Shown one piece after another: positions 2,181 through 61,908 of a stretch of 64,000 bases of DNA (positions are counted from its first letter, which is position 1; each line of letters starts with the position of its first letter). This DNA is from Candidatus Latescibacterota bacterium (GTDB lineage Bacteria; Latescibacterota; UBA2968; UBA8231): positions 1,760,001 through 1,824,000 of the forward strand of contig OZ241889.1 of assembly GCA_965203355.1 (NCBI GenBank), given 5' to 3'. The notes under the pieces were generated by a model. That model was not told where the DNA came from and ran no database searches. It was given only the letters and a program-made list of their open reading frames with translations. Both the position numbers and the translations under genes were made by a program.

Positions 2181-2235
2181 GGGTGTTTCCATCGGACGCT
2201 GGTTTTGTTGCCGCGGCGCGCGGCGACGCTGCGAT

Positions 2236-10802: not shown

Positions 10803-12385
10803 TGGCCGGCTTTTTTCCGCGAGTGGCTTGGGCCGCGTGGATGCTCTTGCTGCCGCTGGAGGTCGCAGCCCAAGAGCGGATATGCGGGACGCGCTGGCTT
10901 GAGCAGCACCGCGCGTCTTTCCCCGCGTCGGCCGCCAAGGCCGCAGGCGCAAGTCAAGAAGCAGGCCCGATTGAAGTGGGAACCCAGCGCGCCTTTTACG
11001 TGCCGACTGAATTCGCGCTCAAGTTGGCCACTTGCCGCTACAAGGGGACGCACTGCTATATCTTCGTCGAAGAAAGTCAGTGGGACGTCATCGCGGCCCA
11101 GCCGGATGTAGATAAGCTGGGTGCGCTTTTCGACGCGGCGACTCCGGCGGATCCCGCGCGCGGCGTATTTGAAATAGCGGTCGATGCCTTTGGCGAGCCT
11201 GCTGACAAAGACGGCGACCCTCGCCTCTTCATGCTGATTTTGGACCTTCCGGGGAATATAGTCGGCTATTTCGACCCCGCGCTGTACGAGCGGGCTCAGC
11301 CCGAATTGCAGCGCGATACGATTTACCTCGACGCGAACACGCTGGCCTTCCGTGCCTATCTCGCCCACGCCACCTTAGCGCACGAATTTCAGCACCTCAT
11401 CCATTGGAGCCGCGATGCCGACGAGGAGGCATGGATCGACGAAGGACTTGCTGGGTACGCCGAGGATCTGGTGGGTTTCCCCGAAGCGGATCCGAGCATG
11501 GTGCCGAGTTTTCTCGCCGATCCCAGTATCAATCTGACGCACTGGACGTCTAGTTCCGCTAGCTACGGCAAGACGTATCTGTTCGCCTCGTTTTTGGCCG
11601 ACCGCTATGGTGCGGGGCTGATTCGCCAAATCGTCGCTGAGCCGCGCAACGGCATTTTGGGCATTGACGACGCGTTCAAGAACCAAAACTGGGTCGAGGA
11701 TTACGCGGGTGCTTGGCGGTTGTGGATTGCGGCTAACTATGCGGGTGGGTACGAGGCCCTGCGCGGTCGCCGGGCCGCTGCGATGGCCGCGCCCGAGGTG
11801 CCTTTCGCAAAACTGGCCGGCGCGGTTGGCAACCAATGGGGCGCGGCCAATGTGGTCATTCGCCCAGCGGGCGATGTAGCCGTTGATTTCGCGGGCGCGG
11901 CCGAGGGGGACTATGCCGTGTGGGTGTACGCCCAGCGCGCCCAGCGCGGCGAACTGATGGCGATGGAACTTAGCGCGGATAATGCTGGGCAGGTACAGGT
12001 TGCGGATGTGGACAGCGCAGCGGTCATCGTCGGCCGGGCTTCGCCGACGGGTGGAGCGTTTGCTCTCGCGGCTCGGTATTTTACGCCCACGGTCGTAGCC
12101 ATGCGGGTTGAGGAGCGGGCCGGAGCCAGCGGCTTGGCACCGGTTTATCCGAACCCGGCCAACAGCGCGGTGAGTCTGTCCTTTCGCTTGGCAAGGGAAG
12201 CGGACGTCGAGCTGGCGATATACAATGTCTTAGGCCAGCGCACGGCCCTTTTGGTGGCCGAGCGGCTCGGGGCTGGTCAGCACTGGGCGCGCTGGCGCGG
12301 CGACCGGGCGGCGAGCGGGGCGTATTGGGCTGTGTTGAAGGTCGGCGGGGAAACGCGAATGCGTCGGTTGATGTTGGTCCGGTGA
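10802..12385 (+). CDS. Secreted zinc metalloprotease (M30/hyicolysin-like) with T9SS-type CTD
   Basis: Signal peptide; TLAHEFQHLIH...WIDEGLA; VYPNP...IYNVLGQ...ASGAY CTD. Confidence 0.75.
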   Translation: MAGFFPRVAWAAWMLLLPLEVAAQERICGTRWLEQHRASFPASAAKAAGASQEAGPIEVGTQRAFYVPTEFALKLATCRYKGTHCYIFVEESQWDVIAAQPDVDKLGALFDAATPADPARGVFEIAVDAFGEPADKDGDPRLFMLILDLPGNIVGYFDPALYERAQPELQRDTIYLDANTLAFRAYLAHATLAHEFQHLIHWSRDADEEAWIDEGLAGYAEDLVGFPEADPSMVPSFLADPSINLTHWTSSSASYGKTYLFASFLADRYGAGLIRQIVAEPRNGILGIDDAFKNQNWVEDYAGAWRLWIAANYAGGYEALRGRRAAAMAAPEVPFAKLAGAVGNQWGAANVVIRPAGDVAVDFAGAAEGDYAVWVYAQRAQRGELMAMELSADNAGQVQVADVDSAAVIVGRASPTGGAFALAARYFTPTVVAMRVEERAGASGLAPVYPNPANSAVSLSFRLAREADVELAIYNVLGQRTALLVAERLGAGQHWARWRGDRAASGAYWAVLKVGGETRMRRLMLVR

Positions 12386-42965: not shown

Positions 42966-43188
42966 GGAATAAGTCTCCGATAGCATAGGGGAATTAGGGT
43001 TGGGAAAATACGCAATGGAGGCGCGGGAAATCAATAGGGCGAGACTTGGAACGGAGCAAGGTTGGGAAGAGGAGATAGATAGATTTGCCTTTGCCCGGTC
43101 GTGCGTTGCGATATTACTTTTGGGTGGCGAGGGTAGCGGGGTCGGATGCTCGGGGGTAGATTTGGAATCCCAAACAAGGAGTCAGTGT

Positions 43189-48557: not shown

Positions 48558-49631
48558 TCAAGAGCGGCTCCACACGTCTTTGAAGAGCCGAATCCAGTTG
48601 CCGGCGAAAATGCCAGCGATGTTGGCGGGCGAGTAGCCCCGGCGCGCGAGAATGGGCTGGAGTTTTTGCAAATCGGCGATCGTGTTGAGGTCGCGCGGGG
48701 CTTGTTCGGTGCCGAAGCCGCCGTCGAGATCGGTGCCAATGCCGCAATGGCGCGAAGTGCCCAAAAGCTGACAGATGTGGTCGATGTGGTCGGCGACGGT
48801 TTCCAAGGTGGCGTTGGTAAGCTGTTCAAAAGCGGGGACTTTGCGCTGCCAGCCCGGATCGAGCATCCACGCATCAAAGGCCGTGCCGATGACTCCGTCG
48901 CGCTCGGCGATGGAGCGGATCATTTCGTCGGTGAGCTGGCGCTGGCCGGGGACGAGGGCGCGGCAGTTGTGGTGCGAGGCGCAGACCGGGCCGTCGTACC
49001 CGGCCAAAAGTTCCCAGTGGGCTTGGTCGGTTAAGTGGGTCAAGTCGATGATGATGCCGGCCGCTTTGAGTGCGTCGAGCAGAGGTTTGGCTGGTGGCAA
49101 CAGCCCCCCTTCGGTGCCGGTGCCGTGCGAATAGGTGCTGGTGCCGTAATGCGATATCGACACTAGGCGCAAGCCAAGTTCGCGCCATTCGGGCACTTGG
49201 TCCGGGCCTAAAATGGGATCGGCGCTCTCCATGGCGAGGATTAGGCCGAAGGGAGTGGTTGGGTCGGGATTTTGCCAAGCGGCGATGGTTTCATCTAGAT
49301 CCGCGATGCTTTTGACGAACCGGAGCAAACCCGCCCGTTCGAGTGCTTGATAGTACGCCAAATGCCCGCGGCCAACGCCGTGGCATTGGGCTTGGCAGTA
49401 CATGCCAGTGCGGGTCCAGCGGTCGCCTAGGTCTAAGCGCGACATCACCGTGCCGCAGAAGAGGCCGACCTTGCCACGGCGCAGTTCGGGGAAGGTCGCC
49501 GTGCAGGAGCCAAAGCCTTCCATAGTCGCCACCGAGTCGTGGACGCGCACGGTAGCCGCCTTTTGCGTCAGGTCGCGGTTGATTTGCAGAGCGGAAAAAG
49601 CTAGATCGAGGTGGCTGTCGAGAATGAGCAT
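48558..49631 (-). CDS. Membrane dipeptidase (peptidase M19) family protein, paralog A
   Basis: DSHLD, MESAD, IDLTH, ASHHN, GTDLDGG, GNW. Confidence 0.85.
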   Translation of the reverse strand: MLILDSHLDLAFSALQINRDLTQKAATVRVHDSVATMEGFGSCTATFPELRRGKVGLFCGTVMSRLDLGDRWTRTGMYCQAQCHGVGRGHLAYYQALERAGLLRFVKSIADLDETIAAWQNPDPTTPFGLILAMESADPILGPDQVPEWRELGLRLVSISHYGTSTYSHGTGTEGGLLPPAKPLLDALKAAGIIIDLTHLTDQAHWELLAGYDGPVCASHHNCRALVPGQRQLTDEMIRSIAERDGVIGTAFDAWMLDPGWQRKVPAFEQLTNATLETVADHIDHICQLLGTSRHCGIGTDLDGGFGTEQAPRDLNTIADLQKLQPILARRGYSPANIAGIFAGNWIRLFKDVWSRS

Positions 49632-49635
49632 GGTG

Positions 49636-50769
49636 TTAGCTCCAGGCTTGGCGGAAGAAGCGTGCGAGGTTGCCGTGGGCGATGGCCGCAATGTCGTGGG
49701 TCGAGTAGCCTCGCCGGTCGAGGATGTCGAGGAAGCGCTGTAGGTCGGCAATGGTGTCGTAGTCAATGGGGGCCATTTCGCGCCCGAAGCCGCCGTCGAG
49801 GTCGGAGCCGATGGCGACGTGCTCGCAGGTGCCGACGAGCTGGCAGATGTGGTCGATGTGATCGACGACGGCCGACATGGAGCGGCGGGCTGTTTGCGGA
49901 TAGGTCGCTGGGTCGTCGAAGTTGATCGAGGGATTGAGCATGAACTCGGCGAAGACCACGCCGATGACGCCGCCGCGCTCGGCGATGGCTTGGATCATCT
50001 CGTCGCTGAGGTGGCGCTGGCCGGGGACGAGGGCGCGGCAGTTGCAGTGGCTGGCGTGGACGGGACCTTGCCAGTAGTTCAAAAGCTGCCAGAAGACCAA
50101 GTCCGAAGCGTGGGTCAGGTCCAGGGCGATGTTTGTTGCGGCGAGTGCGTCGAGCAGGGGATAAGCATCGGCGTATAGCCCGCCGTGCGTGCCGGTGCCA
50201 TGCCCCCAAGTATTGGCGCCAAAATGCGTCAGCCCCACCGAGCGCAGACCCTGTTCCCACCACCAGCTTACTTGCTCGGGATCCAAGATGGGGTCGGCAC
50301 TTTCCATGCTCAAAATCAGGCCGATCGGCGTTGTTGAGTCGGGGTTTTGCCAAGCGGCGATAGCCGCGTCGAGTTCCGTTGCGTCGCGGATGAAGCGCAG
50401 CTGGCCCTCGTGCGCTAGTGCTTTGTAATAGTGAAGATGCGACTGGCCGATGGCGTGGGCTGCTTCTTGGGTTCTCATGCCGTCGTCGAGGGGGCCGGTG
50501 GGTATCTGCACTCGGCTCATGATGGTCGAGAGCGCGATTCCAACGCAGCCTTGGCGCATCTGCGGCAGCGATACGGTGGCGGTGCCGTGCGAGGTGCTTT
50601 CGGGGCGCTTTCTGTCGCGCAGCGAGTCAGGGTGCGAAGGGCCTGGCGGTTTGGGGTCTTCGCGCTCGCGCAAGACGCGGATGTCTTGGGTGAGGTCGCG
50701 GCGGTGGTGCAGGGCGTTGAAGGCCAAGTCGAGGTGGCCATCTATAATGAGTATGGATTGCTCGGGCAT
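49636..50769 (-). CDS. Membrane dipeptidase (peptidase M19) family protein, paralog B
   Basis: DGHLD, MESAD, LDLTH, ASHCN, GSDLDGG. Confidence 0.85.
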   Translation of the reverse strand: MPEQSILIIDGHLDLAFNALHHRRDLTQDIRVLREREDPKPPGPSHPDSLRDRKRPESTSHGTATVSLPQMRQGCVGIALSTIMSRVQIPTGPLDDGMRTQEAAHAIGQSHLHYYKALAHEGQLRFIRDATELDAAIAAWQNPDSTTPIGLILSMESADPILDPEQVSWWWEQGLRSVGLTHFGANTWGHGTGTHGGLYADAYPLLDALAATNIALDLTHASDLVFWQLLNYWQGPVHASHCNCRALVPGQRHLSDEMIQAIAERGGVIGVVFAEFMLNPSINFDDPATYPQTARRSMSAVVDHIDHICQLVGTCEHVAIGSDLDGGFGREMAPIDYDTIADLQRFLDILDRRGYSTHDIAAIAHGNLARFFRQAWS

Positions 50770-50786
50770 GATGGGAAACCTTTGGG

Positions 50787-51899
50787 TTAATGTACTAGGT
50801 ACTTTTCCACGATCGCTTCGTCGATCGTCACGCCCAACCCGGGGCCCTCCGGCACGTGAACGCACCCATCGACAACGGCGAACTTTTCGTGCGTTAGGTC
50901 GTGGCGCAAGGGCGATTCGGCCATGCAGTATTCAAAGATCTCGCCGTGGGGGACTGCCGCCAGTCCGTGCAGGGCGGCGGCGATGGTGATGCCGCTTTTG
51001 AACGAGTGGTTGACGACCTTGCGGTGCAGGCGGTGAGCGAGGCGGCCGACTTCGACCATGGTCGAAAGCCCGCAGCGGCCCGGATCCGGCTGCACCCAGT
51101 CGATGCGGCCCTTGACGAGCAGTCGTTCAAAATCTCGATAGCGCGATTCGGCCTCGCCCGTGGCGATGGGCACTGGACTGCGCTCGCAGAGCTGAGCATA
51201 GCCCGCGACATCTTCGGGGTGCAGAGGTTCTTCGAGCCAGAATATGCCATACTCGGCGAACTGCTCGGCGCGCTTGAGGCCGGTTTTCCAGTCCCATACC
51301 TGCCCGGCGTCCACCAAGATGTCCACATCCGGCCCGGCCCCTTTCCGCGCTGCACGCACTAAGGCGATGTCATTGGCCTCGCTCTGCCCCATCGGCCCCC
51401 AGCCAAACTTGATGGCCGTGAACCCTTGGTCGGCAAAGCGGCGTGCCTGTTCGCCCGTCTCTTGCGGCGTGGCGCCGAAGAGGATGGAGCAATAGGCGCG
51501 GAACTTGGTTTGATAGGGACCCCCGAGCAACTTGTAGGCCGGGCAGCCGTGCGCTTTGCCGGCAATGTCCCACAGCGCGAGGTTGACGCCAGCCATAGCG
51601 TGCGTACCCACGCCGACGCGGCCGTAGTAGTTGGCTGCCTCGATCATGCGATCGCCGCATACGTCGATGGCCAGTGGGTCTAGGCCCTCCAGCGCGTTGG
51701 CCAGGCCGTTGCTAATCTGGTGAGAAAGCGGGGCCTCAACGACGGCCTTGGCCACGGTGGGGGCCGAATCAACCTCGCCCCAGCCGGTGATGCCGGCGTC
51801 GGTTTCTACTTGGATCAGACAGGTGTCCTGCGTGCCGTCGCAGCGGGCGGTGACATCAGGCAGGCGCAGGTAATGGGCGGATACGCGCGTGATTTTCAC
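50787..51899 (-). CDS. Mandelate racemase/muconate lactonizing enzyme family protein
   Basis: TDAGITGWGE, ALWDIAGK, KFGWG, VDAG, WLEEP, TGE. Confidence 0.88.
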   Translation of the reverse strand: MKITRVSAHYLRLPDVTARCDGTQDTCLIQVETDAGITGWGEVDSAPTVAKAVVEAPLSHQISNGLANALEGLDPLAIDVCGDRMIEAANYYGRVGVGTHAMAGVNLALWDIAGKAHGCPAYKLLGGPYQTKFRAYCSILFGATPQETGEQARRFADQGFTAIKFGWGPMGQSEANDIALVRAARKGAGPDVDILVDAGQVWDWKTGLKRAEQFAEYGIFWLEEPLHPEDVAGYAQLCERSPVPIATGEAESRYRDFERLLVKGRIDWVQPDPGRCGLSTMVEVGRLAHRLHRKVVNHSFKSGITIAAALHGLAAVPHGEIFEYCMAESPLRHDLTHEKFAVVDGCVHVPEGPGLGVTIDEAIVEKYLVH

Positions 51900-51900
51900 C

Positions 51901-53529
51901 TTAAAAGTCGAATACGGTTTCGAGGGTCATGACTTTGTGGCGCTGCAAGCGCCTACTGGCCGTGCGCTCAAAGAGGAAGCGAGTATCCCAGCGCACCGAG
52001 GTGCCTTCTTTCATGTTCAGTTCGATGTCAAAGCCGTAGAAGGTGTCCTTGGTCGGCTCGAAGAAATCATCTCGACCGGTGCCGTCTTCGTTGGGGTTCC
52101 GGCCGATGTTGTTCTTGTGAAAGTAAGCGTACGCACGCTTGAGACGAGGGACATACTTGAGCAGTTTGCGCGACAGGGATGCGCTGGCGATGAGCTGCTG
52201 TTTTGGGATGTCGGTGCCGGTCAGGTACTGATAGGAAACCGAGGCGTACGCGTATGAGCCGAGTTCCGTGCCCAAGTGCCCGAAGAAGCCGGAGAGCTCG
52301 TTGCTATGGCCGAGCTGCGCGTCCTTGGATTGGGCCTGTCCGGTGGCGAGGTCGAGATATGCGCGATCGAGTTCGTACAGCTCGTCGAAGTAGCGCGAGT
52401 CGAAATCGCGGCGGAAGTGGCGGAAGTCCAGTTGGCCCTTGAGCGGACCTAAAGACAGCCACAGGCCTGGGGCGGCGAGTCCGAACCCGGTCGCTTGGCG
52501 GTTGCCCGGGGAGACGCCCTGCTGTCGCGCCTCAAAGCTGGAGAGGGCGTCGTCATCGTCGATCAGCAGGGCGAATTGGCCGTAGAGTTTGAGTGCTAAG
52601 CCTAGGTTGCGGATGAGCGGGTAGGCTAGGTCTAAGCCCAAGATAGAAAAGAAGTCTTGGTCAACGTGGTTTTTGTTGAAGGGTTTCTGGCGGTCCACGT
52701 CTTGGTCCACTGGAAAGGCGTTGCCGTAATTGGCGTTGAGCCCCAACAAGGTGGAGGCGATGTCGGCGGAGAGGCCGCTGCCGGCGTCGGCGTCGATGAT
52801 GCCGTCGTTGTCATCGTCGCTGTCGATGTGGTCGGGTACGCCGTCGGCGTCGTTGTCGAGGGCGAATTGGCCGTCTTCCGGGAAGGCGTCGATGGGGTCG
52901 GGTACGCCGTCGGAATCGCTGTCGCGCAGGCCGCTATACTGGTCGAGATCGGCCACAAAGGTTACGCCCACTTCGAGGGCGGCGGCGTAGCCAAAGGTCC
53001 GCAGCCCGATGAGGGCACCGCCTTCTTGGAAGTCTTGGAGGTTGTTGATTACTCCTTCGAGTCCGATATTAGTGCCGGCTAAATTGGCGATGCGAAACTG
53101 GAGTCCGGTTTTCTTGATGCCGGGATAGTGCAGGGTGTTGCGGTAGTTGTCCATGATGAGGCCGTACCCCAACGTCACATCGCTGAGTGCGCCCATTTTG
53201 ACGTACACCGCGTCATTGGGACGGCCATAGCGCACGTAGTAAATTTTGCGCAGAATCGAGTCGAAGGTCTGGGTTGACGAACCGGCCTTCCAGCCGCGCG
53301 ACCCGAGGTCGCCGTTGCGCTCGACAAACAGCTCTAAGTCGAGGCCAATGCCCAAGCGGCCTAGGGGGAAGTCGGGCCGGAGACTGAGGCGATATAGCTG
53401 CTCTTGGTCGACAGTTACGCTGCCCATGCTGAGCGAGTAGCCGAACATGGCCACCGAGGGCTGAGCCGAAGAGACGACCGGATAGAGCGAGAGCAGCAAG
53501 ACAAAGGCGCAGTTGCCGCGAAAATTCAT
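51901..53529 (-). CDS. Hypothetical outer-membrane beta-barrel-like protein with an Asp-rich TSP3-like Ca-binding insert
   Basis: Signal peptide; TLGYGLIMDNY; DSDSDGVPD...DNDADGVPD..DSDDDNDG; ends ETVFDF. Confidence 0.65.
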   Translation of the reverse strand: MNFRGNCAFVLLLSLYPVVSSAQPSVAMFGYSLSMGSVTVDQEQLYRLSLRPDFPLGRLGIGLDLELFVERNGDLGSRGWKAGSSTQTFDSILRKIYYVRYGRPNDAVYVKMGALSDVTLGYGLIMDNYRNTLHYPGIKKTGLQFRIANLAGTNIGLEGVINNLQDFQEGGALIGLRTFGYAAALEVGVTFVADLDQYSGLRDSDSDGVPDPIDAFPEDGQFALDNDADGVPDHIDSDDDNDGIIDADAGSGLSADIASTLLGLNANYGNAFPVDQDVDRQKPFNKNHVDQDFFSILGLDLAYPLIRNLGLALKLYGQFALLIDDDDALSSFEARQQGVSPGNRQATGFGLAAPGLWLSLGPLKGQLDFRHFRRDFDSRYFDELYELDRAYLDLATGQAQSKDAQLGHSNELSGFFGHLGTELGSYAYASVSYQYLTGTDIPKQQLIASASLSRKLLKYVPRLKRAYAYFHKNNIGRNPNEDGTGRDDFFEPTKDTFYGFDIELNMKEGTSVRWDTRFLFERTASRRLQRHKVMTLETVFDF

Positions 53530-53616
53530 ACAAGGGAAGATGCGGTCGCCGGGCCGCTGGTGCAATGGCTGCGGCCGCAAACGACAACGACACAACTCAC
53601 CAGAAAGAGGTTTGCG

Positions 53617-55455
53617 ATGGGACAAACGCTAAAGGAACTGCTCGATCATAGCTTCGCAACCCATGCCGAACAGACGGCCATTCGAGAGCTCAAGCCCGTA
53701 GAAGGTAGCCGCACCTTGAGCTATCAGCCCGCGACCTATGCCGAGCTCAAAAATCGCCGCGACCGGCTGGCGGCGGGTCTTGCGGCCGAGGGCTTGGCCA
53801 AAGGTCAGCGCGTGGGCATTCTCACCGATGGCGGCAGCGAACCGCTCTTGATCTTTCTGGCGACCGACTGCATTGGGGTCAGTGCGGTGCCGCTGTGCAT
53901 CCAGTCGCCCGACGAGGTGCTCGCCCACAGCATCGCGCACTCTGCGGTCGAACTGCTGGTCGTGGACCGCAAGGGCTACGAGCGGTTTGGTGCCGTCCGC
54001 GATCGGCTGGACAAGACGCCGCGGATTGCGTTGACCGAGGGCCAAGCTGAAGACGCGATCCCTTGGCAAGGGCTAGCGGAGAGCCGCGCGGCCGTGCCCG
54101 AGGTTGAGGTGCTGCCAGAAGATGAATCGAAAATTCTCTATACCTCGGGTTCATCTGGCTTGCCCAAGGGCGTGATCCAGACCCACGCCAATATCGTCGC
54201 CAACGTCGAAGAAGTTTGGGACGTAATTAGCAAGCGCCAGCCGCTGCGCCTGTTCAAGTCGGCGCCCGACTATCACTCCATGGGCATTCTCAACATCTAC
54301 TATCCCTTGGCCAAAGGGTGGATTTTGGACTTGGCGCGCTCGCCCGACCGCGTCCTCAGCGATATTCGCCTCTCAGAGCCGGAAGGCTTTCTCACTGTGC
54401 CGCTGATACTCGACAAAGTGTACGGCAATGTGCGCAAGGAAATCGATGCTGGCGGCCTCAAGGGGCGCTTGATCCAGCGCTCGGTTGCGGCTAAGGAGCG
54501 GGCGGTGCGCGGCGAGGCCGGGCTGGTCGACACGCTCTTTTGGGCGGCCATAGGCCGTTCAATAGTCGGCAAAATTCGCGCCCAACTCGCCACGCGGGTC
54601 GGGCCTCACCTCGAACTTTTGATCGTCGGCTCAGCCAAGGCCGATCCCAAGGCGTTGGACTTCTTTCACGAAGTGCTCGATATCACCACGTACGAGGGCT
54701 ACGGCACAACCGAGTGTGCGCCGCTGATTGCCGCCAACCATCTCGACGGCCGCAAAAGCGGCACGGTGGGAAGGCCGTTGCAGGCGGTAAAAATCGTGGC
54801 TGAAGATGGGGCGGAAATCGGGTACAGCGATCCAGCACAGGACGAGTGCAGGCCCAGCGGCGAGCAGATCGGGGAGTTGTGGACCAGCGGCCCCAACGTC
54901 ATGCGCGGGTATTTGCACGACCCGGAGCAGACCGAGCAGGTGTTAGTGGAAGAAGGTGGCCAGGTCTGGTATCGGACCGGCGATTTGTTCAGCATGGACG
55001 ACGAAGGTTTCCTCTCGTTCCACGGGCGAGTTGGCCGACAGTTCAAGCTGCGCAACGGCGAGTTCGTCAATCCCGAAGCCTTGGAGCGCATTTTCGCCCG
55101 GGTATCCCTAGTCGAACATGTCGTCGTGTACGGCGACCAACAGCGCGACTATCCGCTGCCGTTGGTGACCGTGGATGTGGAGGAAGCAAAAAAGAGCGGC
55201 CTTGACGGATTGCCGCTGGAGGACGAGGCCGCGCTGCGCACGCATCCGATCTTGGGCGAGCGGATCCGCGCAGGATTTCTCGCCGAGGCCACGGCCGCTG
55301 GCCTGCCGGGCTACCAGCGGCCGCAGCGCGTCGCGCTCTTGCCCGAGCCGCTGAGCGAGGATGCCGGCACCCTGACCAAGGGCCTGAAGAAGATCGTGCC
55401 CAAGGCGATCGTCGAGCGCTATCGCACGCTCGTCGAACAGACCTACGCATCCTAG
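53617..55455 (+). CDS. Long-chain fatty acid--CoA ligase (AMP-binding)
   Basis: YTSGSSGLPKG, EGYGTTE, VMRGY, RTGD. Confidence 0.88.
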   Translation: MGQTLKELLDHSFATHAEQTAIRELKPVEGSRTLSYQPATYAELKNRRDRLAAGLAAEGLAKGQRVGILTDGGSEPLLIFLATDCIGVSAVPLCIQSPDEVLAHSIAHSAVELLVVDRKGYERFGAVRDRLDKTPRIALTEGQAEDAIPWQGLAESRAAVPEVEVLPEDESKILYTSGSSGLPKGVIQTHANIVANVEEVWDVISKRQPLRLFKSAPDYHSMGILNIYYPLAKGWILDLARSPDRVLSDIRLSEPEGFLTVPLILDKVYGNVRKEIDAGGLKGRLIQRSVAAKERAVRGEAGLVDTLFWAAIGRSIVGKIRAQLATRVGPHLELLIVGSAKADPKALDFFHEVLDITTYEGYGTTECAPLIAANHLDGRKSGTVGRPLQAVKIVAEDGAEIGYSDPAQDECRPSGEQIGELWTSGPNVMRGYLHDPEQTEQVLVEEGGQVWYRTGDLFSMDDEGFLSFHGRVGRQFKLRNGEFVNPEALERIFARVSLVEHVVVYGDQQRDYPLPLVTVDVEEAKKSGLDGLPLEDEAALRTHPILGERIRAGFLAEATAAGLPGYQRPQRVALLPEPLSEDAGTLTKGLKKIVPKAIVERYRTLVEQTYAS

Positions 55456-55657
55456 AGGCTGTCGGAAAACGCTGAGGGCTGTCGTTTGTATGTAGGCAGG
55501 CTCCCCCGCTGATTCCCGCGCAAGTGGGAATGCCCACTTGATAGCGATCTCGGCAACAATATGGACCGCTGGATTCCTGCGCATGTCGTGGCACGGGGCG
55601 ACTTCTTATGCGGGAATGCCCCACCCAATGCGCCCTAGGGGTTTCATACAGTTTCTA
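55453..55657. mobile_element. MITE-like element carrying dRS3/REP-like hairpins
   Basis: Imperfect TIRs TAGAGGCTGTCGGAAAAC / GGTTTCATACAGTTTCTA (13/18); internal ATTCCC-N8-GGGAAT at 55512-55531 and a second expanded copy at 55573-55617. Confidence 0.5.
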
Positions 55658-56656
55658 AGACGGTTTCTTTGGTTTTTGCAGGCCATGTACGCGCATGCGG
55701 GAACGCAGGCGCTCTGGCTTCATGCCCAACAAGTATGCTGCGCCTTGCATTCCATAGATCACCCAATTCGTGGTTTCGAGTGCTTCTATAAGCATTTTCT
55801 TTTCGATCTCGGCGATCTGGTCCACCTTCTCGGCGATCTGGTCCACCTTGGCTACAACTCCCTGTTCAAGCATCGTAGGTGCCTTGGCTAAGTCTTCAGT
55901 TGAGATCTGCACATCCTCCAATCGTATGGAATCACTTTGGCATATAATCACCGCCCGCTGAATCAGGTGCTCTAACTCGCGCACATTCCCCGGCCAATTA
56001 TAATCCGGTCTCTGCAAATGCATTAGTACCTCTTTGCTCAGGCGCGGCGCGGGTCGCTGTAGCTCTTGGGCAAACAGGCGCGCAAAGTGTTCTGCCAAGA
56101 CCGGTATATCCTCGCGGCGTTCCCGCAAGGGCGGAATCATTACCGGGAACACGTCCAAGCGGTAGAATAGATCTTTTCGGAATGTCCCCGCTTCAGCTGC
56201 TTGTCGTAGATCTCGGTTGGTCGCGGCAATTATGCGGACATCCACTTTGATAGATGCTTCTCCGCCGACTCGAAGCAGGCGGTGGTCTTCGAGAACGTGG
56301 AGTAGCGTCGTTTGTGCCTCTAAGGGCAAGTCGCCGATTTCATCGAAAAATAGGGTACCCTTATGCGCCTGCTCAAACCGGCCGATCCGCCGCCCTACGG
56401 CACTGGTAAAGGCCCCTTTTTCATGGCCAAACAGTTCGTCTTCGACTAGTCCGGTCGGTATAGCTCCGCAATTGACCATGACAAAGGGGTTTGCTTGACG
56501 CAGGCTAAGGGTGTGGACACGCTGGGCCAACATACCCTTGCCTACTCCAGTCTCGCCTAGTATTAGGACTGTCGTAGAAGTCTGTGCTACTAGTTGGAGT
56601 TGCTCCAAGACTTTGGTCATGGCTGGGCTTTGGCTGATTATATTCTGAGAGATCAT
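55655..56656 (-). CDS. Sigma54 enhancer-binding protein (AAA+ + Fis HTH) lacking an N-terminal sensory domain
   Basis: GETGVGK, ELFGHEKGAFTSA, FDEIG, ATNRDL, FRKDLFYRL, WPGNVREL; AAA+ starts about residue 5. Confidence 0.92.
   Translation of the reverse strand: MISQNIISQSPAMTKVLEQLQLVAQTSTTVLILGETGVGKGMLAQRVHTLSLRQANPFVMVNCGAIPTGLVEDELFGHEKGAFTSAVGRRIGRFEQAHKGTLFFDEIGDLPLEAQTTLLHVLEDHRLLRVGGEASIKVDVRIIAATNRDLRQAAEAGTFRKDLFYRLDVFPVMIPPLRERREDIPVLAEHFARLFAQELQRPAPRLSKEVLMHLQRPDYNWPGNVRELEHLIQRAVIICQSDSIRLEDVQISTEDLAKAPTMLEQGVVAKVDQIAEKVDQIAEIEKKMLIEALETTNWVIYGMQGAAYLLGMKPERLRSRMRVHGLQKPKKPS
55807..55848. repeat. In-frame 21-bp tandem duplication in the bEBP linker (KVDQIAE x2)
   Basis: TCTCGGCGATCTGGTCCACCT repeated twice exactly. 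Confidence 0.9.
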
Positions 56657-56770
56657 CTTAAAACTCGTTTAGGGCTAGGGCATGACTCGCTTGAGTAGAA
56701 TAGGAATCATAGCGAGATGGATAAATGCTTCGGAATCGTATAAATAGTTCAAAAGAAGTGTTATGTCAAT

Positions 56771-56829
56771 ATCGTATTTCAATACGATTATACCTTGTTT
56801 CAATACGATTATACCTTGTTTTAATACGA
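56771..56829. promoter_or_regulatory. Putative enhancer (UAS): palindrome plus 21-bp tandem repeats
   Basis: ATCGTATT-tc-AATACGAT palindrome (56771-56788); TTTCAATACGATTATACCTTG x2 plus a partial third copy. Confidence 0.7.
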
Positions 56830-56886
56830 CTCCGATATCCATATTAAAGTAGAAAAAAATGGAAATTATCGAAGTAAAGTCATTAT

Positions 56887-56899
56887 AAACAACAGGTTA
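56887..56899 (+). promoter_or_regulatory. IHF-like binding site
   Basis: AAACAA-CAGG-TTA vs WATCAA-N4-TTR (1 mismatch), between UAS and -24/-12. Confidence 0.55.
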
Positions 56900-56928
56900 T
56901 TAACAGAACTAATCCTAATATGACATAT

Positions 56929-56943
56929 AGGCACACTTTTTGC
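56929..56943 (+). promoter_or_regulatory. Sigma54 (-24/-12) promoter
   Basis: AGGCACACTTTTTGC: GG-N10-GC matching TGGCACG-N4-TTGC. Confidence 0.8.
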
Positions 56944-57022
56944 CTTAGTGTTAAGTAAAGTGGGAACTGATAGGCGCAGTCCTAATTCCATTTATCCAAT
57001 CCGTAACACAGGAGGATTTATT

Positions 57023-57256
57023 ATGGAAAAGCTGCACAAACCCCAGCCCGCCTATGAGCCTAACAAGGTTCAGGCATACAATAATGAAAGGGGCCGTTGG
57101 ACGGATACTGGAGACGATATCCTCGATCTTCCCAATGGCTGCCGGAAATACATTCCGATGGAAATGTGTACGATCGTTTGGAACCCTAACAAAAACTGTG
57201 CTTCTATCGGAACGAAACGAGCGGATCCCGGAAGGGCCACTCGCACGGAATGCTAG
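57023..57256 (+). CDS. 77-aa four-Cys peptide, putative RiPP-like precursor
   Basis: Strong RBS AGGAGG; first gene after the sigma54 promoter; Cys40/49/59/77; followed by stem-loops. Confidence 0.75.
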   Translation: MEKLHKPQPAYEPNKVQAYNNERGRWTDTGDDILDLPNGCRKYIPMEMCTIVWNPNKNCASIGTKRADPGRATRTEC

Positions 57257-57276
57257 TACTGCCGAGGACGCGACTC

Positions 57277-57383
57277 TTTCGTTGCTAAGAGGTTTTGACC
57301 TCTTGAGTTGGCGAAAGCCCTATTTTGTTCCCACGTTTGACCCAATGAGTAGCAATTCGGCGTATACCGAATTGCTACTCATT
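57277..57383 (+). terminator. Two stem-loops after the precursor gene
   Basis: Hairpin 57277-57316 (core AAGAGGT-tttg-ACCTCTT); perfect 17-bp stem AATGAGTAGCAATTCGG-cgtata-CCGAATTGCTACTCATT at 57344-57383. Confidence 0.7.
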
Positions 57384-57427
57384 AGCGTTCTGACCATTTT
57401 GCATTGCTTGTGAAATTGGGGTCATAC

Positions 57428-58705
57428 ATGCAGCGATTTTTTAGTTTTCCTCTGAGTGGGCTAATAGCCGGTCTCGTGCTCATCGGCGAGGCCGGAAGTC
57501 AAGAGAACGTTTTATTTTGGCCAGCCAATCTGAAACACATTCCCAAACGATCCGTAGTCCAAGATGACCGTCGCCTGCACCTAAGGCTCGAAAAGGTTAT
57601 CCGCTTAAAGTTGGATGAACATACACCTGTCCTAGATAGTGTACTCAAAGGACAGTGGGCTCTAGGGGATAGTACCTTCTTTTTTATTTCCGGTGCGCTC
57701 TATGAATTCGACCAGACTGGTACCTATGTCCGTACCATCGGGCGGCGAGGTAAGGGACCTGGCGAATACCAAAATCCCACTCATGTCTCCGTAGATGCCG
57801 AGGGCCGTATTTACGTGGTAGCAGACCCCTTTCTCCTCCATGTATATGATAGAACAGGTCGTCATCTACATACTTATAAGGATCAGGCGGTCCGTCGTCT
57901 TTTCTTTGATACACAGGGAAACTTGGTGCAGTTGATAGAAGATTGGTTTGAAGCGCCGTCCGCTTGGAAAGATCGGTTCGCTCGGTTTATACCCGGGGTG
58001 AGGCATTCGCCTATATTTGTGGGGTTGACCAAGAGGAATCGGCAGGGGAAGCCTTTGTATCGGCTGGCTATCTCTACAGATGAGACCGTGGATGTCTTGT
58101 CCTATATGTTATCAAGGATTAGTCTCTGTTACAGTGAAACCAAGGATCGACTCTACTACGTGGAGCCGTGGGACTATAAAATCAAGGTGATTGATGCCCA
58201 TCGTGGACAGATCGTCGAACAATTTGGCCCCGAGCCGGAGTACTATCACAGCATGAGACGGGAAGTTGACTTTCCCATTTACGAGCCCCGTGATTCCGAC
58301 GAACTCTATGAGGCTAAGTTTAATGCATCGTTTACAGAGGAATTGCACCTGCTGGACGAGAAATATGTTCTGTATGTGTATCGCCCAGGCAAATCTGCCC
58401 TTGAGGGAGTTTTCGGGACGAAAAGGAAAGAGGTACGTGGGGGGGTTTGTCTGGCCTATGATATTAGCTCTGGAGACACCATCCGAGTTTTCCAGATGAT
58501 GAAGGAATCTCTTGACGACTGGCGATTGTATCATCCTGATTCCGAAGAAAGAGGGGGAATAAATACGGGTGGAACCAGAAGAGGAAGCTCTCCTACGAAT
58601 GTGATTGCTAGAGGGGAGTACTTGTACATTTATAAACCACCTCCAGAAAACATAATGGAGACTTCGAATGGCCGCGTCGAGGTTTTTACTGTCTCTGTTG
58701 AATGA
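57428..58705 (+). CDS. Exported 6-bladed beta-propeller (NHL-like) protein
   Basis: Signal-like N-terminus; FDQTGTYVRTIGRRGKGPGEYQNP motif; YDRTGRHL. Confidence 0.8.
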   Translation: MQRFFSFPLSGLIAGLVLIGEAGSQENVLFWPANLKHIPKRSVVQDDRRLHLRLEKVIRLKLDEHTPVLDSVLKGQWALGDSTFFFISGALYEFDQTGTYVRTIGRRGKGPGEYQNPTHVSVDAEGRIYVVADPFLLHVYDRTGRHLHTYKDQAVRRLFFDTQGNLVQLIEDWFEAPSAWKDRFARFIPGVRHSPIFVGLTKRNRQGKPLYRLAISTDETVDVLSYMLSRISLCYSETKDRLYYVEPWDYKIKVIDAHRGQIVEQFGPEPEYYHSMRREVDFPIYEPRDSDELYEAKFNASFTEELHLLDEKYVLYVYRPGKSALEGVFGTKRKEVRGGVCLAYDISSGDTIRVFQMMKESLDDWRLYHPDSEERGGINTGGTRRGSSPTNVIARGEYLYIYKPPPENIMETSNGRVEVFTVSVE

Positions 58706-58811: not shown

Positions 58812-59537
58812 ATGAAAGATTTTATAAAGATAAGTTCCCTAGTCGCCAATCTTTTGCTAGTGATCTTGCTGGGAATTTCTTTTGCTTGGATATATAAAGC
58901 AGAATATAGATTGTCCCACAGTTCGGGTCAATTGGCGACAGAACGCACTAGATTATATGAAGAATTTATAATTGCAACCATGATGGCAGACCGTCTTTTG
59001 GGATTGCCATTCCCTCGACTTGCTCTGGTCGATGTCTATAACAAGAATATATCAACTGATTTCTCACAAAAAGAGGGTGCCTTAATTCTCGTATTCGATC
59101 CTCAAACCTGTCAACCTTGCTTAATAGCTCAACTCAAGTTGTTGAATCATGTTTACAAACAACTTAAAAATCCAGATACATTTCCAGTCATTGCAATTGC
59201 CCCTCGCTATCACTCTCAGTTGATAAAACGATATGCTTTGAAATACGAATTGCAATATACAATAATAGCTGATAAAAAAGATCAAATCTTCAATGATAAC
59301 AATGAAGTACTTTACAAAGCAACTCCTGCCGTATATTTAGTTAATCAGAACAACACTATAATACGAAGCCATATTCCCGTATTTAGGAAACCTTATATTT
59401 CTGTTCTATTTTTTTATGAGGTACAAAATCTAATACCTCTTTCGGAGCCTATTTTTTCCTATATAGAACCTTTATTACTTATTGATGTTGTGAAAGGTGA
59501 TTTTGATCTTGAACCTATCGAGTACTTCCTCTATTGA
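58812..59537 (+). CDS. Membrane-anchored thioredoxin-fold/redoxin protein
   Basis: N-terminal TM; FP...L.D; CQPC (CxxC); cis-Pro motif TPAVYLVN. Confidence 0.75.
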   Translation: MKDFIKISSLVANLLLVILLGISFAWIYKAEYRLSHSSGQLATERTRLYEEFIIATMMADRLLGLPFPRLALVDVYNKNISTDFSQKEGALILVFDPQTCQPCLIAQLKLLNHVYKQLKNPDTFPVIAIAPRYHSQLIKRYALKYELQYTIIADKKDQIFNDNNEVLYKATPAVYLVNQNNTIIRSHIPVFRKPYISVLFFYEVQNLIPLSEPIFSYIEPLLLIDVVKGDFDLEPIEYFLY

Positions 59538-59550
59538 TTTAGAGTCTCTA

Positions 59551-61293
59551 ATGATCTATATAAACAAAAAAACAGCGAGTCGTTTTTTAGCTTTTATCAG
59601 ACCTTATTGGTTTCTACAAAGTGTAGCCTTTATTCTTGCTATATTAAGTACGGCTAGTTTATTAGTCTCTCCTTATATAACAAAGATCATAATAGATGAA
59701 GTACTTCCCAATAGAGACTTATTTTTTCTCAATATAATGCTGGTCATCCTTGTGGGCAGTATTCTCTTTCAATTGGTCATCTCATTTTTTGGCGAATATA
59801 TTTATGCTTGGATTAGTAATAATATCACTTTGGACATGCAGCAGACTCTTTTTCGTCATATGCTGAATTTCTCTTTAACCTTTTATAATCAAAATAAGAA
59901 AGGAGATATTATATATAGGATCGAAGAAGATATAGAAAATATTCAAGATTTTCTTATTACGGGTATAGTCAGGTTTATACATGATGTATTGAAAATAACA
60001 TTTATCATAATCATGCTTTGCTGGCTAAGTTTTGAGTTTTTTTTATGTTCAATCAGTATTATTCCTTTATACATCATTAGTTTGATTTATTTTAGACCGA
60101 AAATAAAAAATATTACAGAGCGTGTCCGTGAAAAACAATCTGATATATTTTCCTTTTTAGTAGAGAGATTCCACAATATTCAACTAATTCAGACGTATAA
60201 CACATACACATACGAGAGTAAAAAATTACGCAAAAATCAGACTGAATTGGTAAACCTGAGTATGAAAAGCACTGTCTATTCCGCTGCAGCGAGTACCGTT
60301 GTGAATAGCATTGTGGGTTTAACGCCAGTGTTTTTCTTAGGCTGGGGCGGTTATCAAATCATAGAAGGAAATCTAACCCTGGGAACTCTAATCGCCTTCA
60401 TGCAATACCTGTCGTTTCTATTTTCTCCAATTAATGACCTAAACAGTCTTTATTTTCAAGCTGTACGAGCATCGGTGTCCATGAATCACTTGATGGAATT
60501 TCTGGAACTGCCTACTCAGCTCAATCTAAATGGTATTGGTGCCGGCTCTGCTTCTTTCTCTTTTGAACGGAAAATAGTGTTTAACGGTATCCATTTTTCC
60601 TACGATGGAGAATCAGTTTTACAAGACTTGAATATGGAACTTATAAAAGGAAAAAAATATGCTATAGTAGGTGCTAGTGGTTGTGGCAAGACTACTCTGG
60701 TCTATCTTTTATGTAGGTTCTATCAGCCTAGTAGGGGAGCTATCTTTATAGATGACACGAACCTTGAAAATATAAATCTTTTTGATATGAGAAAACACGT
60801 TGGATTGGTGACACAAAATAATCAAGTCTTCAACGATACAGTATGGGACAATATACAATATGGAAACATAGAAAGCACTCTCAGCGAAGTTGAGATAGCA
60901 GCTAAGACACTGGATTTGGATAATTATACAGATCGAGATAATCCTGTATTCACCAGATATATTGGTGAGCAAGGAGCACAATTATCTGGTGGTCAAAGAC
61001 AGCGAGTTGCTATTGCTCGAGCTGTACTAAAGGATATAGAAATTATGATCCTGGATGAAGCAACTTCGGCATTAGATTCCAAAGGTGAGCAGATAATTTT
61101 TGCCAAACTAAAAAAGCTGTATAAAGATAAAACCATAATCCTAATTAGCCACCGACTAGCCACGGTCCAAAATGCGGATGAAATCATTTGCTTAGAAAAA
61201 GGAAGAATTGTAGAACAGGGAAACCATGGCGATCTTCTGCGAAAAAAGAGATATTATTGGCAACTCTTTAAAGATCAACTGGAGGAACGTTGA
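59551..61293 (+). CDS. ABC exporter (fused TMD + ATPase), no C39 peptidase domain
   Basis: Six TM segments; GASGCGKTT; LSGGQRQR; ILDEATSALD; ISHRL; very low GC. Confidence 0.93.
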   Translation: MIYINKKTASRFLAFIRPYWFLQSVAFILAILSTASLLVSPYITKIIIDEVLPNRDLFFLNIMLVILVGSILFQLVISFFGEYIYAWISNNITLDMQQTLFRHMLNFSLTFYNQNKKGDIIYRIEEDIENIQDFLITGIVRFIHDVLKITFIIIMLCWLSFEFFLCSISIIPLYIISLIYFRPKIKNITERVREKQSDIFSFLVERFHNIQLIQTYNTYTYESKKLRKNQTELVNLSMKSTVYSAAASTVVNSIVGLTPVFFLGWGGYQIIEGNLTLGTLIAFMQYLSFLFSPINDLNSLYFQAVRASVSMNHLMEFLELPTQLNLNGIGAGSASFSFERKIVFNGIHFSYDGESVLQDLNMELIKGKKYAIVGASGCGKTTLVYLLCRFYQPSRGAIFIDDTNLENINLFDMRKHVGLVTQNNQVFNDTVWDNIQYGNIESTLSEVEIAAKTLDLDNYTDRDNPVFTRYIGEQGAQLSGGQRQRVAIARAVLKDIEIMILDEATSALDSKGEQIIFAKLKKLYKDKTIILISHRLATVQNADEIICLEKGRIVEQGNHGDLLRKKRYYWQLFKDQLEER

Positions 61294-61440: not shown

Positions 61441-61908
61441 ATGAAGCAACGGCTGTTTATCACCGGCCTTGTGCTCTGGGCCGGGGTGCTGGCGGGAAGC
61501 GTGTACGCCCTCTGGTCTTATGCAGATCGCTTGCTGTCCGGTGTGCCGCTGGGCGGCTTTGAAGATGCGGCTGTTCACCGACTCAATCCGCTGGAGGCTA
61601 AGCGGAGTTTCGACCGTGGCGCGGCCGTTTTTGTCGATGTGCGATCGGCTTTTGCTTACGAGGCCGGGCACATCCTCGGTGCCTTGCACCTACCTTCCCA
61701 TGTTTCTACGGCTCACTTACGCGAAGTGCTGGCGTCTTATCCGGCGGATATCCGAGTTATCACCTACTGTTCGGGCGGCGGTTGCCAGAGCAGTCGTACG
61801 CTGGCGAAGCGACTCGTCGAAGAGTCCGTCCGCGATGAAGTCTATGTCCTGACCGGCGGCTGGCCCGCTTGGCAAGCGGCCGGGGTGGGCGAGGAGGCTG
61901 GCTCGTGA
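61441..61908 (+). CDS. Membrane-anchored rhodanese-like protein
   Basis: N-terminal TM; FVDVRS..Y..GHILGA; YCSGGGC; LTGGWPAW. Confidence 0.85.
   Translation: MKQRLFITGLVLWAGVLAGSVYALWSYADRLLSGVPLGGFEDAAVHRLNPLEAKRSFDRGAAVFVDVRSAFAYEAGHILGALHLPSHVSTAHLREVLASYPADIRVITYCSGGGCQSSRTLAKRLVEESVRDEVYVLTGGWPAWQAAGVGEEAGS

Follow-up and report, generated by a model that had tools for sequence, protein, structure and literature searches.

A conserved small gene beside a beta-propeller gene in Candidatus Latescibacterota, probably encoding the precursor of an exported cysteine-crosslinked peptide

A small open reading frame (ORF) of 77 codons in a 64,000-nucleotide stretch of a Candidatus Latescibacterota genome (assembly GCA_965203355.1, contig OZ241889.1, positions 1,760,001 to 1,824,000; the whole stretch is called the window here, and positions count from its first base) is a real, conserved gene. 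It adjoins a gene for a beta-propeller protein, and the propeller gene is followed in the window by genes for a thioredoxin-fold protein, an ATP-binding cassette (ABC) exporter, a rhodanese and a subtilisin-like (S8) protease fused to a DUF1611 domain. The product is probably (with a likelihood that we put at about 0.6) the leader-plus-core precursor of an exported, cysteine-crosslinked peptide, which would undergo cleavage, export and disulfide bonding before the propeller binds it; its cutting, its modification and its role are all inferred. The conservation of the gene, the division of its product into a conserved leader and a variable core, the cassette that surrounds it in related genomes and a model of its complex with the propeller are the main evidence for this reading.

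Conservation of the peptide gene

The frame runs from an ATG at 57023 to a TAG stop at 57254-57256 and ends in a cysteine, the last of four (Cys40, Cys49, Cys59 and Cys77). Mechanical ORF calling begins it at a GTG at 56948; the start is placed at 57023 because the family members described below align from this methionine, all 15 of the other aligned members starting in its column with M-x-x-L-x-K, and because the GTG sits 4 bases past the -12 part of a promoter-like element. One homologue, P0002, has two additional residues directly behind the methionine. Among the eight start sites listed for the island, that of the peptide gene alone has a canonical Shine-Dalgarno sequence, sites of the AGGA or GGAG type precede the start in all 15 distinct family ORFs, and the gene is predicted to be strongly translated. 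Inspection of the sequence for a Sec or Tat signal found no hydrophobic stretch in residues 1-39, which also hold no cysteine. A sequence-only reading of this DNA, made earlier without database searches, had proposed the start at 57023 over that at 56948, a 77-residue product with these four cysteines and one of them at the very end, the best ribosome binding site of the island and a cysteine-free N-terminal part with no Sec signal, and all of these points are borne out.

A word-indexed search of 5.8 billion proteins returned two matches, the query itself and P0002, a protein of 79 residues that shares 52 of 76 positions (68%) in a gap-free alignment and keeps all four cysteines. An exhaustive profile search with this pair against 1.84 billion representatives returned three, the query and two large beta-repeat proteins (P0003 and P0004) in which 11 and 5 repeats, respectively, of the type V-x-V-Y-x-N-x-x-G-x-W-x-Q-x-G align with residues 12-36 (E = 2.6e-6 and 1e-4). 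The two proteins were set aside as a likeness of motif rather than as homologues. The conserved leader motif of the family resembles a single blade hairpin of such repeats. No family was found for the window peptide in Pfam or NCBIfam (the latter at E up to 0.1), the peptides of three relatives matched nothing in NCBIfam at E up to 0.01, and no usable match to the window peptide came from the protein atlas. A locus scan of genome contigs that used the single propeller sequence as query returned nothing, as did scans of metagenome contigs with the peptide pair and with the propeller alignment.

Gene position can bring to light a family of putative precursors that direct searching by sequence misses. 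In Latescibacterota loci with a gene order like that of the window, a small ORF with a strong ribosome binding site adjoins the propeller gene. A search with a propeller alignment found the propeller in 24 of 167 genomes of the phylum, and a hidden Markov model (HMM) of three of the small ORFs then recovered further ORFs adjoining those propellers. A profile of 12 small propeller-adjacent ORFs from other Candidatus Latescibacterota genomes, with the window and P0002 excluded, was run over 23,903 stop-to-stop ORFs and detects that of the window at E = 1.2e-5 (26.2 bits); the next match outside the family reaches only E = 0.43. Seventeen members were seen, comprising 15 distinct ORFs from the loci and the window, P0002 and one ORF in G092, and a search with a 16-row alignment of the family gives a match at E up to 0.001 in 13 of the 167 genomes, at 15 places. 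The family is restricted to Latescibacterota and is without a name so far. Both the ORF and its cysteines, on whose conservation in related loci the sequence-only reading had depended, are kept there.

Comparison with a variant strain, about 96% identical, adds to the picture of a functional gene. The strain is known from contigs X5 and X6, which come from two runs of one study, carry identical differences and are counted once. Within the 234 bases of the ORF, it differs at 57122 (C>A, Leu34Ile), 57139 (C>T, synonymous at Gly39) and 57199 (T>C, synonymous at Cys59); as 3 of the 26 differences of the contig spanning 56600-57290 are unlisted and cannot be placed, the ORF carries 3 to 6 differences. 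The 366 bases upstream hold 18 listed differences and one insertion, and the 1576 bases from 57403 hold 58 differences and 2 gaps, so that the ORF, with its synonymous-biased differences, diverges less than either flank. An open frame that arose by chance in AT-rich DNA between genes would agree with the shortness of the ORF and with its lack of a Pfam or NCBIfam family and of a usable protein-atlas match, yet a homologue, a match to the family profile, a Shine-Dalgarno sequence, synonymous-biased differences and a divergence below that of both flanks all speak against it, and such an origin is barely credible.

Leader, core and predicted binding to the propeller

Members of the family are 62-87 residues long, with cysteines spread over about 40 residues. 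M1, L4, Y19, W26 and C49 are invariant in all 16 aligned sequences, and K6 and C40 are kept in 15 and C59 in 14. The N-terminal part follows the pattern M-x-x-L-x-K-K, usually R-R, which the window peptide has lost, and then h-x-A-Y-x-x-E-G-x-W (residues 16-26). Mean pairwise identity is 0.40 over residues 1-26 and 0.19 over residues 27-77, when two near-duplicate rows are dropped and the pair of window peptide and P0002 is left out, and the earlier proposal of a leader and a cysteine-bearing core agrees with this difference. No cleavage motif is conserved past W26, and the family alignment holds no conserved double-glycine (GG) site. A cysteine lies at the C-terminus or within 3 residues of it in 10 of the 16 sequences, and the aligned column of the C-terminal cysteine is occupied in 11. 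The window peptide and seven other members have four cysteines, four members have three, one has two, two have five and one has six (three in L001, L002/L093 and L004, two in L112, five in L110 and L114, six in L125).

The YxxPxL motif is typical of lasso-type leaders, and the sequence-only reading had likened the YEPNKV of the window peptide to it in the form YxxPxL/V. This likeness is not sustained by the family: Y11 and P13 are kept only in P0002, the conserved element is instead h-x-A-Y-x-x-E-G-x-W, and no Pfam family of the PqqD type (the recognition element, RRE, of RiPPs, peptides made by ribosomes and modified after translation) was found among the scanned ORFs of the window and of related loci. 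A lasso-type precursor was rejected on the same grounds.

An AlphaFold2 (AF2) model of the peptide, built from the 16-row alignment, has a mean predicted local distance difference test score (pLDDT) of 66.9, with residues 1-9, 13-17 and 19-21 below 50. It consists of a long hairpin (24-35 and 40-51) and short strands at 65-67 and 74-76, and a Foldseek search with it gave no match at E up to 0.001. The AF2 model of the propeller reaches a pLDDT of 73.6 and a predicted template modelling score (pTM) of 0.77, and its best fold matches, 4raa and 3s9j, are Bacteroides exported proteins without assigned function. The propeller has a hydrophobic segment at its N-terminus and one homologue at 76% identity.

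Modelled together, the peptide and the propeller (residues 27-425) reach a score of 0.62 (0.62, 0.66 and 0.00 in the three runs), against 0.00 for the best of three controls. The mark used for this score is reached by 116 of 157 solved complexes and by 2 of 215 mismatched pairs, counts that hold roughly here since the models were made with our own alignments. Agreement between runs extends to at least 29% of contacts, with a partner pLDDT of 39 or more. The modelled interface takes in peptide residues 25-37, 39, 41-43, 45-46, 48, 50, 71, 74 and 76 and none of residues 1-24. This complex prediction, which the sequence-only reading had suggested as a check, supports binding of the peptide by the propeller.

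Propeller binding would also suit a small exported protein that is never cut, with the full 77 residues, minus at most the methionine, forming a subunit or ligand of the propeller and the conserved N-terminus acting as an export or recognition tag. In favour of this are the position of W26, part of the conserved N-terminal motif, inside the modelled interface, the duplication of peptide and propeller as a unit in L125 and the want of a conserved cleavage motif beyond W26. Against an uncut product stand the retention in the cassette of a cytoplasmic S8 protease with intact triad motifs, and the predicted disorder of residues 1-21 and the position of residues 1-24 outside the interface. In addition, the nearest characterised relative of the protease is a leader peptidase (PMC7876137). 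Taken together, these points make the uncut form unlikely. For the leader-plus-core precursor, the sequence NERG/R, at which a cut by the S8 protease had been guessed, sits at the border between the disordered N-terminus (1-21) and the folded, propeller-touching part that begins at 24-25, a position consistent with such a cut.

The surrounding cassette

The features of the region are listed in Table 1. The order propeller, peptide, TlpA-like protein, ABC exporter, rhodanese and S8-DUF1611 protein recurs in L001, L002, L004, L118, L119, L123, L124 and L127; in G092 the order is S8-DUF1611, TlpA-like protein and peptide, and L125 has two peptide-propeller pairs. The cassettes of relatives run on with genes for an acyl carrier protein (ACP), a 214-residue protein without family, a BtrH_N/DUF4872 protein, HlyD and a resistance-nodulation-division (RND) transporter. 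As the window stops 149 bases past the S8 gene, with no ACP start within those bases, the remaining genes of its own cassette are out of view.

Table 1. Features at and around the peptide gene (positions in the window)
Feature	Position	Strand	Basis and remarks
Sigma-54 enhancer-binding activator, 333 aa, divergent	55655..56656	-	Pfam Sigma54_activat 1.4e-66, AAA_lid_14, HTH_8
Three tandem 21-bp direct repeats	56769..56831	.	100/86/76% identity, spacing 21; inverted repeat in the first
Sigma-54-type -24/-12 element, AGGCAC-N5-TTGCC	56929..56944	+	GG and GC separated by 10 bases; ATG 78 bp further on
Shine-Dalgarno sequence AGGAGG	57011..57016	+	Ends 6 bases before ATG 57023
77-aa peptide gene	57023..57256	+	Leader-like residues 1 to ~24 (conserved, predicted disordered); core ~25-77
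Perfect 17-bp stem with 6-nt loop	57344..57383	+	88 bases after the stop; no T run follows
Propeller, 6-bladed, NHL-like, DUF5128-like, secreted or membrane-anchored, 425 aa	57428..58705	+	Pfam DUF5128 9.3e-11
Membrane-anchored thioredoxin-fold protein (TlpA/ResA-like), CQPC	58812..59537	+	Pfam AhpC-TSA/Redoxin
ABC exporter half-transporter, no C39 peptidase domain	59497..61293	+	Pfam ABC_membrane and ABC_tran only
Membrane-anchored rhodanese	61441..61908	+	Pfam Rhodanese 1.1e-17
S8 protease (QhpE-like)-DUF1611/TIGR04066 fusion, cytoplasmic, 648 aa	61905..63851	+	Pfam Peptidase_S8, DUF1611_N, DUF1611

The S8-DUF1611 gene begins at a GTG that overlaps the rhodanese stop, and its product has no signal sequence. 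Its NCBIfam matches to QhpE and TIGR04066 stay below cutoff, QhpE (NF049966) at 2.9e-44 with 151 bits (cutoff 165) and TIGR04066 at 4.2e-31 with 108.2 bits (cutoff 200). Across 25 S8-DUF1611 sequences, the Asp/His/Ser triad motifs do not vary, nor does a loop of the GxxxxGK type, and the S8 protease to which the sequence-only reading had pointed is indeed both intact in its triad and a member of the conserved cassette of the peptide. At least 430 proteins are related to it at E up to 1e-10; the top 120 matches are 55-90% identical, with labels that include Gemmatimonadetes, Spirochaetales and Latescibacteria, and in a species collection the nearest genomes by this protein are metagenome-assembled genomes of Candidatus Latescibacterota. 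The genome of the window probably holds a second S8-DUF1611 protein (P0039, 73% identical) and hence two such systems.

The TlpA-like protein matches the NCBIfam model ResA at 5.1e-7, below cutoff, and its CQPC motif is invariant in five of five aligned orthologues. In the active-site loop of the rhodanese, C110 and C115 are invariant in four of four sequences, and the positive-inside rule suggests that this protein faces outward. With an oxidoreductase of invariant CQPC and a rhodanese in the cassette, two disulfides in the window peptide are plausible. The ABC exporter has an uncertain start (GTG 59497 or ATG 59551) and aligns to bacteriocin-type ABC models only from profile position 143-159.

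Another product that these genes could serve is a radical S-adenosylmethionine (SAM) thioether peptide of the ranthipeptide or QhpC-like kind, its cysteines linked to carbons by a maturase encoded outside the window. The QhpE-like S8 domain and the closeness of the S8 gene to the end of the window would allow for this, and a radical SAM/SPASM gene does lie in the cassette, between activator and propeller, in L002/L127, the L002 protein having its best NCBIfam matches to the SCIFF maturase (2.5e-73), PapB (9.7e-71) and QhpD (1.6e-67), all below cutoff. L002/L127 is the only place where the cassette has such a gene, however. A tblastn search with the L002 protein finds a homologue in only 1 of 18 regions (L127), Pfam detects none on the propeller side in L118, L119, L121, L123 and L124, of which L119 and L123 are closest by S8-DUF1611, and none of the 47 window ORFs scanned has a Radical_SAM domain. 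Furthermore, the peptides next to the maturase have three cysteines and no C-terminal one, against four in the window peptide, and the cassettes retain an oxidoreductase with CQPC as well as a rhodanese. A thioether peptide is accordingly improbable here, and the disulfide-bonded product remains the preferred one.

Several loci depart from the common arrangement. Tandem propeller paralogues about 300 bases apart, with no peptide match, occur in L128 (four), L129 (three) and L130 and L131 (two each). In L124, propeller and peptide are separated by a transposase of the IS4/5 type (10636-11523), three transposase genes stand in place of the ABC-to-ACP part of the cassette in L121 (4665-9231), and the ABC gene of L004 is split into ORFs 2597-3979 and 4052-4336, which may be a frameshift or an assembly error. 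In L003, L005, L007, L009 and L011, the S8-DUF1611 gene is accompanied by HlyD/ABC, TPR, CAAX (Rce1-like) protease, GNAT acetyltransferase and BtrH_N genes, with radical SAM (SPASM) genes nearby in L009 and L011. Because the 12-ORF profile search finds no member of the peptide family in these five loci, S8-DUF1611 proteins may serve other precursor families.

Comparison with known systems

The nearest characterised parallel is the maturation of QhpC, the gamma subunit of quinohemoprotein amine dehydrogenase (QHNDH), with QhpD, QhpE and QhpF. There QhpE takes a leader of 28 residues off the crosslinked QhpC while this is still in the cytoplasm, and an ABC transporter then exports it (PMC7876137). 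The two systems would have in common a small cysteine-bearing polypeptide with an N-terminal leader, a subtilisin-like cytoplasmic protease, an ABC exporter without peptidase domain and a periplasmic final partner (PMC7876137). The window differs in having no radical SAM enzyme QhpD and, among 13 ORFs at 46.7-63.9 kb, no Pfam families of the haem subunit QhpA or the flavoprotein QhpG. Its protease forms a fusion with DUF1611, it has a CQPC oxidoreductase and a rhodanese besides, the peptide matches no NCBIfam model, and the propeller is six-bladed and of the DUF5128/NHL type; in QHNDH, QhpB is a beta-propeller.

Among described gene sets, the nearest is the SacP23 cluster of Paenibacillus polymyxa, an example of the CcpM-type cassettes of Firmicutes, where a radical SAM enzyme (TIGR04068), TIGR04066, the ACP-related TIGR04069, a subtilase and an ABC gene stand beside a cysteine-rich precursor (TIGR04065 in the CcpM type), the gene roles being assigned by annotation only (PMC10731318). 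The likeness to such CcpM-type sets lies in a TIGR04066-like domain, a subtilase, an ABC exporter and, in the relatives of the window, an ACP beside a cysteine-containing precursor (PMC10731318). Here, in contrast, the subtilase and the TIGR04066-like domain are fused, the latter at 108 bits against a cutoff of 200, and the TIGR04068 maturase is absent from the window and from most cassettes. No TIGR04065 model fits the window peptide or three of its relatives, the matches of the L001 and L002 ACPs are to generic ACP models and do not include TIGR04069 at E up to 0.01, and the propeller, the CQPC protein and the rhodanese are without counterpart in the CcpM-type set.

To the SCIFF, ranthipeptide and sactipeptide systems there is a likeness through the SPASM enzyme of L002/L127, which is closest to the SCIFF, PapB and QhpD maturases, but the window has no SPASM enzyme, the leader motif differs, and the precursors are 62-87 residues long with 2-6 cysteines. 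The sublancin operon joins sunA with thiol-disulfide oxidoreductases of its own, bdbA and bdbB. The window similarly has a dedicated thioredoxin-fold oxidoreductase and an ABC exporter adjoining a cysteine-containing precursor, and it departs from the sublancin type in its leader, its ABC protein without C39 domain, the Gram-negative-type cell, the periplasmic rhodanese, the propeller and, in relatives, the RND transporter. A double-glycine leader bacteriocin was considered and rejected, given the exporter without C39 peptidase domain and the missing GG site.

The generic marks of a RiPP precursor are present, namely a short conserved ORF, a conserved leader with a variable core, and a peptidase and an exporter in the cluster. 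By analogy, the window system would work like the QHNDH and CcpM-type sets and yet belong to neither, having no maturase, no precursor model and scores below the cutoffs. Literature on DUF1611, on RiPPs of Latescibacterota and on DUF5128-like propellers, covered mostly through titles and abstracts, yielded no description of this cassette.

Regulation and mosaic structure

The divergent activator consists of AAA+ and Fis-type helix-turn-helix parts only, with no sensor domain. Its NCBIfam matches, all below cutoff, start at protein residue 2-29 and at profile position 118 or later, except those to sensor-less PspF models. The three 21-bp repeats, putative activator binding sites to judge from their position, lie 98-160 bp upstream of the promoter-like element, and they vary quickly, or in concert, from strain to strain, with 12 of the 20 strain differences listed upstream lying within them. 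The element matches the textbook sigma-54 consensus with two mismatches, and such matches occur at the level of chance (34 found, 33 expected). A looser pattern, in which GG and TGC are held constant, has four occurrences over the two strands of the entire window, one of them in this intergenic region. The GG and GC of the -24/-12 element are unaltered in the variant strain, and L002/L127 have a similar site between the activator and the first gene. In L118, L119, L121, L123 and L124, a LuxR-type response regulator takes the place of the sigma-54 activator; because of this exchange, regulation does not belong to the conserved core.

Activators of the PspF type, which lack a sensor domain, are often controlled by a protein partner. 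With a sensor-less activator next door and the peptide gene first behind the promoter, the peptide could be a cytoplasmic regulator, for example such a partner, with no connection to the export genes. The five loci with LuxR-type response regulators nevertheless keep the peptide beside the propeller and export genes, and the conserved cysteines and the complex model suggest a partner outside the cytoplasm, which makes a regulatory role very improbable in comparison with an exported precursor.

The stretch 57250-57420, which includes the hairpin behind the peptide gene, folds at -61 kcal/mol (z = -5.75), with none of 200 shuffles equally stable, and the arms of the hairpin are unique within the window. 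Of the 15 family ORFs, 10 have behind them a hairpin at least as stable as -26 kcal/mol, or 10 of 14 without the near-duplicate L093 and with L109 and L110 related to each other, against 9.5% of 168 control segments, which were random 160-base segments of the same loci. A scan for sigma-70 promoters and terminators found nothing at the ORF or the hairpin, and Rfam gave nothing near gathering score within 56400-57600.

The region is a mosaic in composition and in descent. The TlpA-like and ABC genes have a GC content of 0.35 (0.30-0.32 at third codon positions, GC3), the activator, peptide and propeller genes 0.48-0.53, and the rhodanese and S8-DUF1611 genes 0.61-0.62, like the remaining window (0.60 overall). 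Compared with L119/L123, the propeller, TlpA-like and ABC proteins are 23-42% identical, the rhodanese 74-78% and the S8-DUF1611 protein 87-89%, the jump falling at the border between the ABC and rhodanese genes. Because identity differs so sharply between the two parts, the 5' module looks exchanged as a unit and the 3' module inherited. The match to the variant strain stops at 58978, within the TlpA-like gene, with unlike sequence beyond. The mosaic would fit a specificity module of peptide, propeller, oxidoreductase and exporter joined to a generic processing module. An origin of the low-GC stretch by insertion, without relation to the S8-DUF1611 gene, was rejected in view of the synteny of the relatives.

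Proposed pathway and points against it

For the favoured precursor, the sensor-less activator would drive transcription from the sigma-54 promoter, and the strong ribosome binding site together with the 3' hairpin would yield more precursor than enzymes. The S8 domain would remove about 24 leader residues in the cytoplasm, as QhpE does for QhpC, and the ABC transporter would carry the core over the inner membrane. The CQPC protein and the rhodanese may then form or edit two disulfides among Cys40, Cys49, Cys59 and Cys77, a role that for the rhodanese draws on PspE, a periplasmic rhodanese that can reportedly replace DsbA. The folded core would bind its cognate periplasmic propeller, and the HlyD/RND pump of relatives may take the peptide further out. 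BtrH is an ACP-dependent acyltransferase, and the DUF1611 domain, together with the ACP and BtrH-like protein encoded downstream in relatives, may add a further modification. A signal, an antimicrobial and a small propeller subunit are candidate final roles of the product.

A bolder version, which we advance tentatively and hold to be rather doubtful, is that peptide and propeller form a two-part periplasmic protein of a QHNDH-like line without radical SAM chemistry. Cutting by the protease-DUF1611 fusion, perhaps acylation through the ACP and BtrH-like proteins, export by the ABC transporter, crosslinking by a dedicated pair of CQPC protein and rhodanese and insertion into the six-bladed propeller would follow one another, with peptide, propeller, oxidoreductase and transporter exchanged between genomes as one specificity module and the protease module fixed.

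Several observations weigh against the precursor reading or narrow it. The reverse searches fail, with phmmer and an HMM of the window peptide and P0002 finding no family member among 21,004 ORFs, the HMM of three sequences leaving the window ORF out of its matches at E up to 100, and pairwise BLAST of the window peptide against family members being weak (best E = 5.9e-4, one-to-one). Because of these failures, the window peptide is a divergent member, and its place in the family rests on a single profile match plus position. The position itself is unusual, as the peptide gene lies upstream of the propeller gene in the window and downstream in every other locus seen. Since 11 of the 18 propeller regions fetched are without a peptide match (7 have one), the propeller does not in every case require one. 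The S8-DUF1611 protein is far more widespread and far better conserved than the peptide and also occurs without the peptide family, so that its link to the peptide is one of neighbourhood only. The number of cysteines is not always even, and for this reason disulfides are not the general chemistry of the family. One of the three complex runs scored 0.00, and the fold of the peptide itself is uncertain. Finally, the variant strain has a dissimilar sequence in place of the hairpin stretch 57291-57402.

If the precursor reading is right, the cassette represents a new peptide family with an accessory set (propeller, CQPC protein, periplasmic rhodanese, S8-DUF1611, ACP, BtrH-like protein and RND transporter), both unnamed in standard family libraries. 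We know of no tested role of DUF1611/TIGR04066 in peptide maturation, and this widespread domain would gain a concrete candidate substrate. To our knowledge, there is no cultured model for the phylum Latescibacterota; the peptide-propeller pair would offer binding that can be tested directly.

Neighbouring genes in the window

Upstream of the activator, the stretch 48558-55455 holds two M19 dipeptidase genes, a gene of the MR_MLE enolase superfamily, a 574-residue ORF without family and a gene for a 683-residue AMP-binding enzyme. None of these genes recurs beside the cassette in the other 18 regions. DUF1611 and MR_MLE enzymes are presumably linked, as in DgcN/DgcA. Further away, at 1128-8033 and 43000-46062, the window encodes PorV (type IX secretion), FG-GAP/PD40 repeat proteins and a TonB-dependent receptor with CarboxypepD_reg domain, and these genes fit an organism of the FCB group, in agreement with the Latescibacterota relatives of the cassette.

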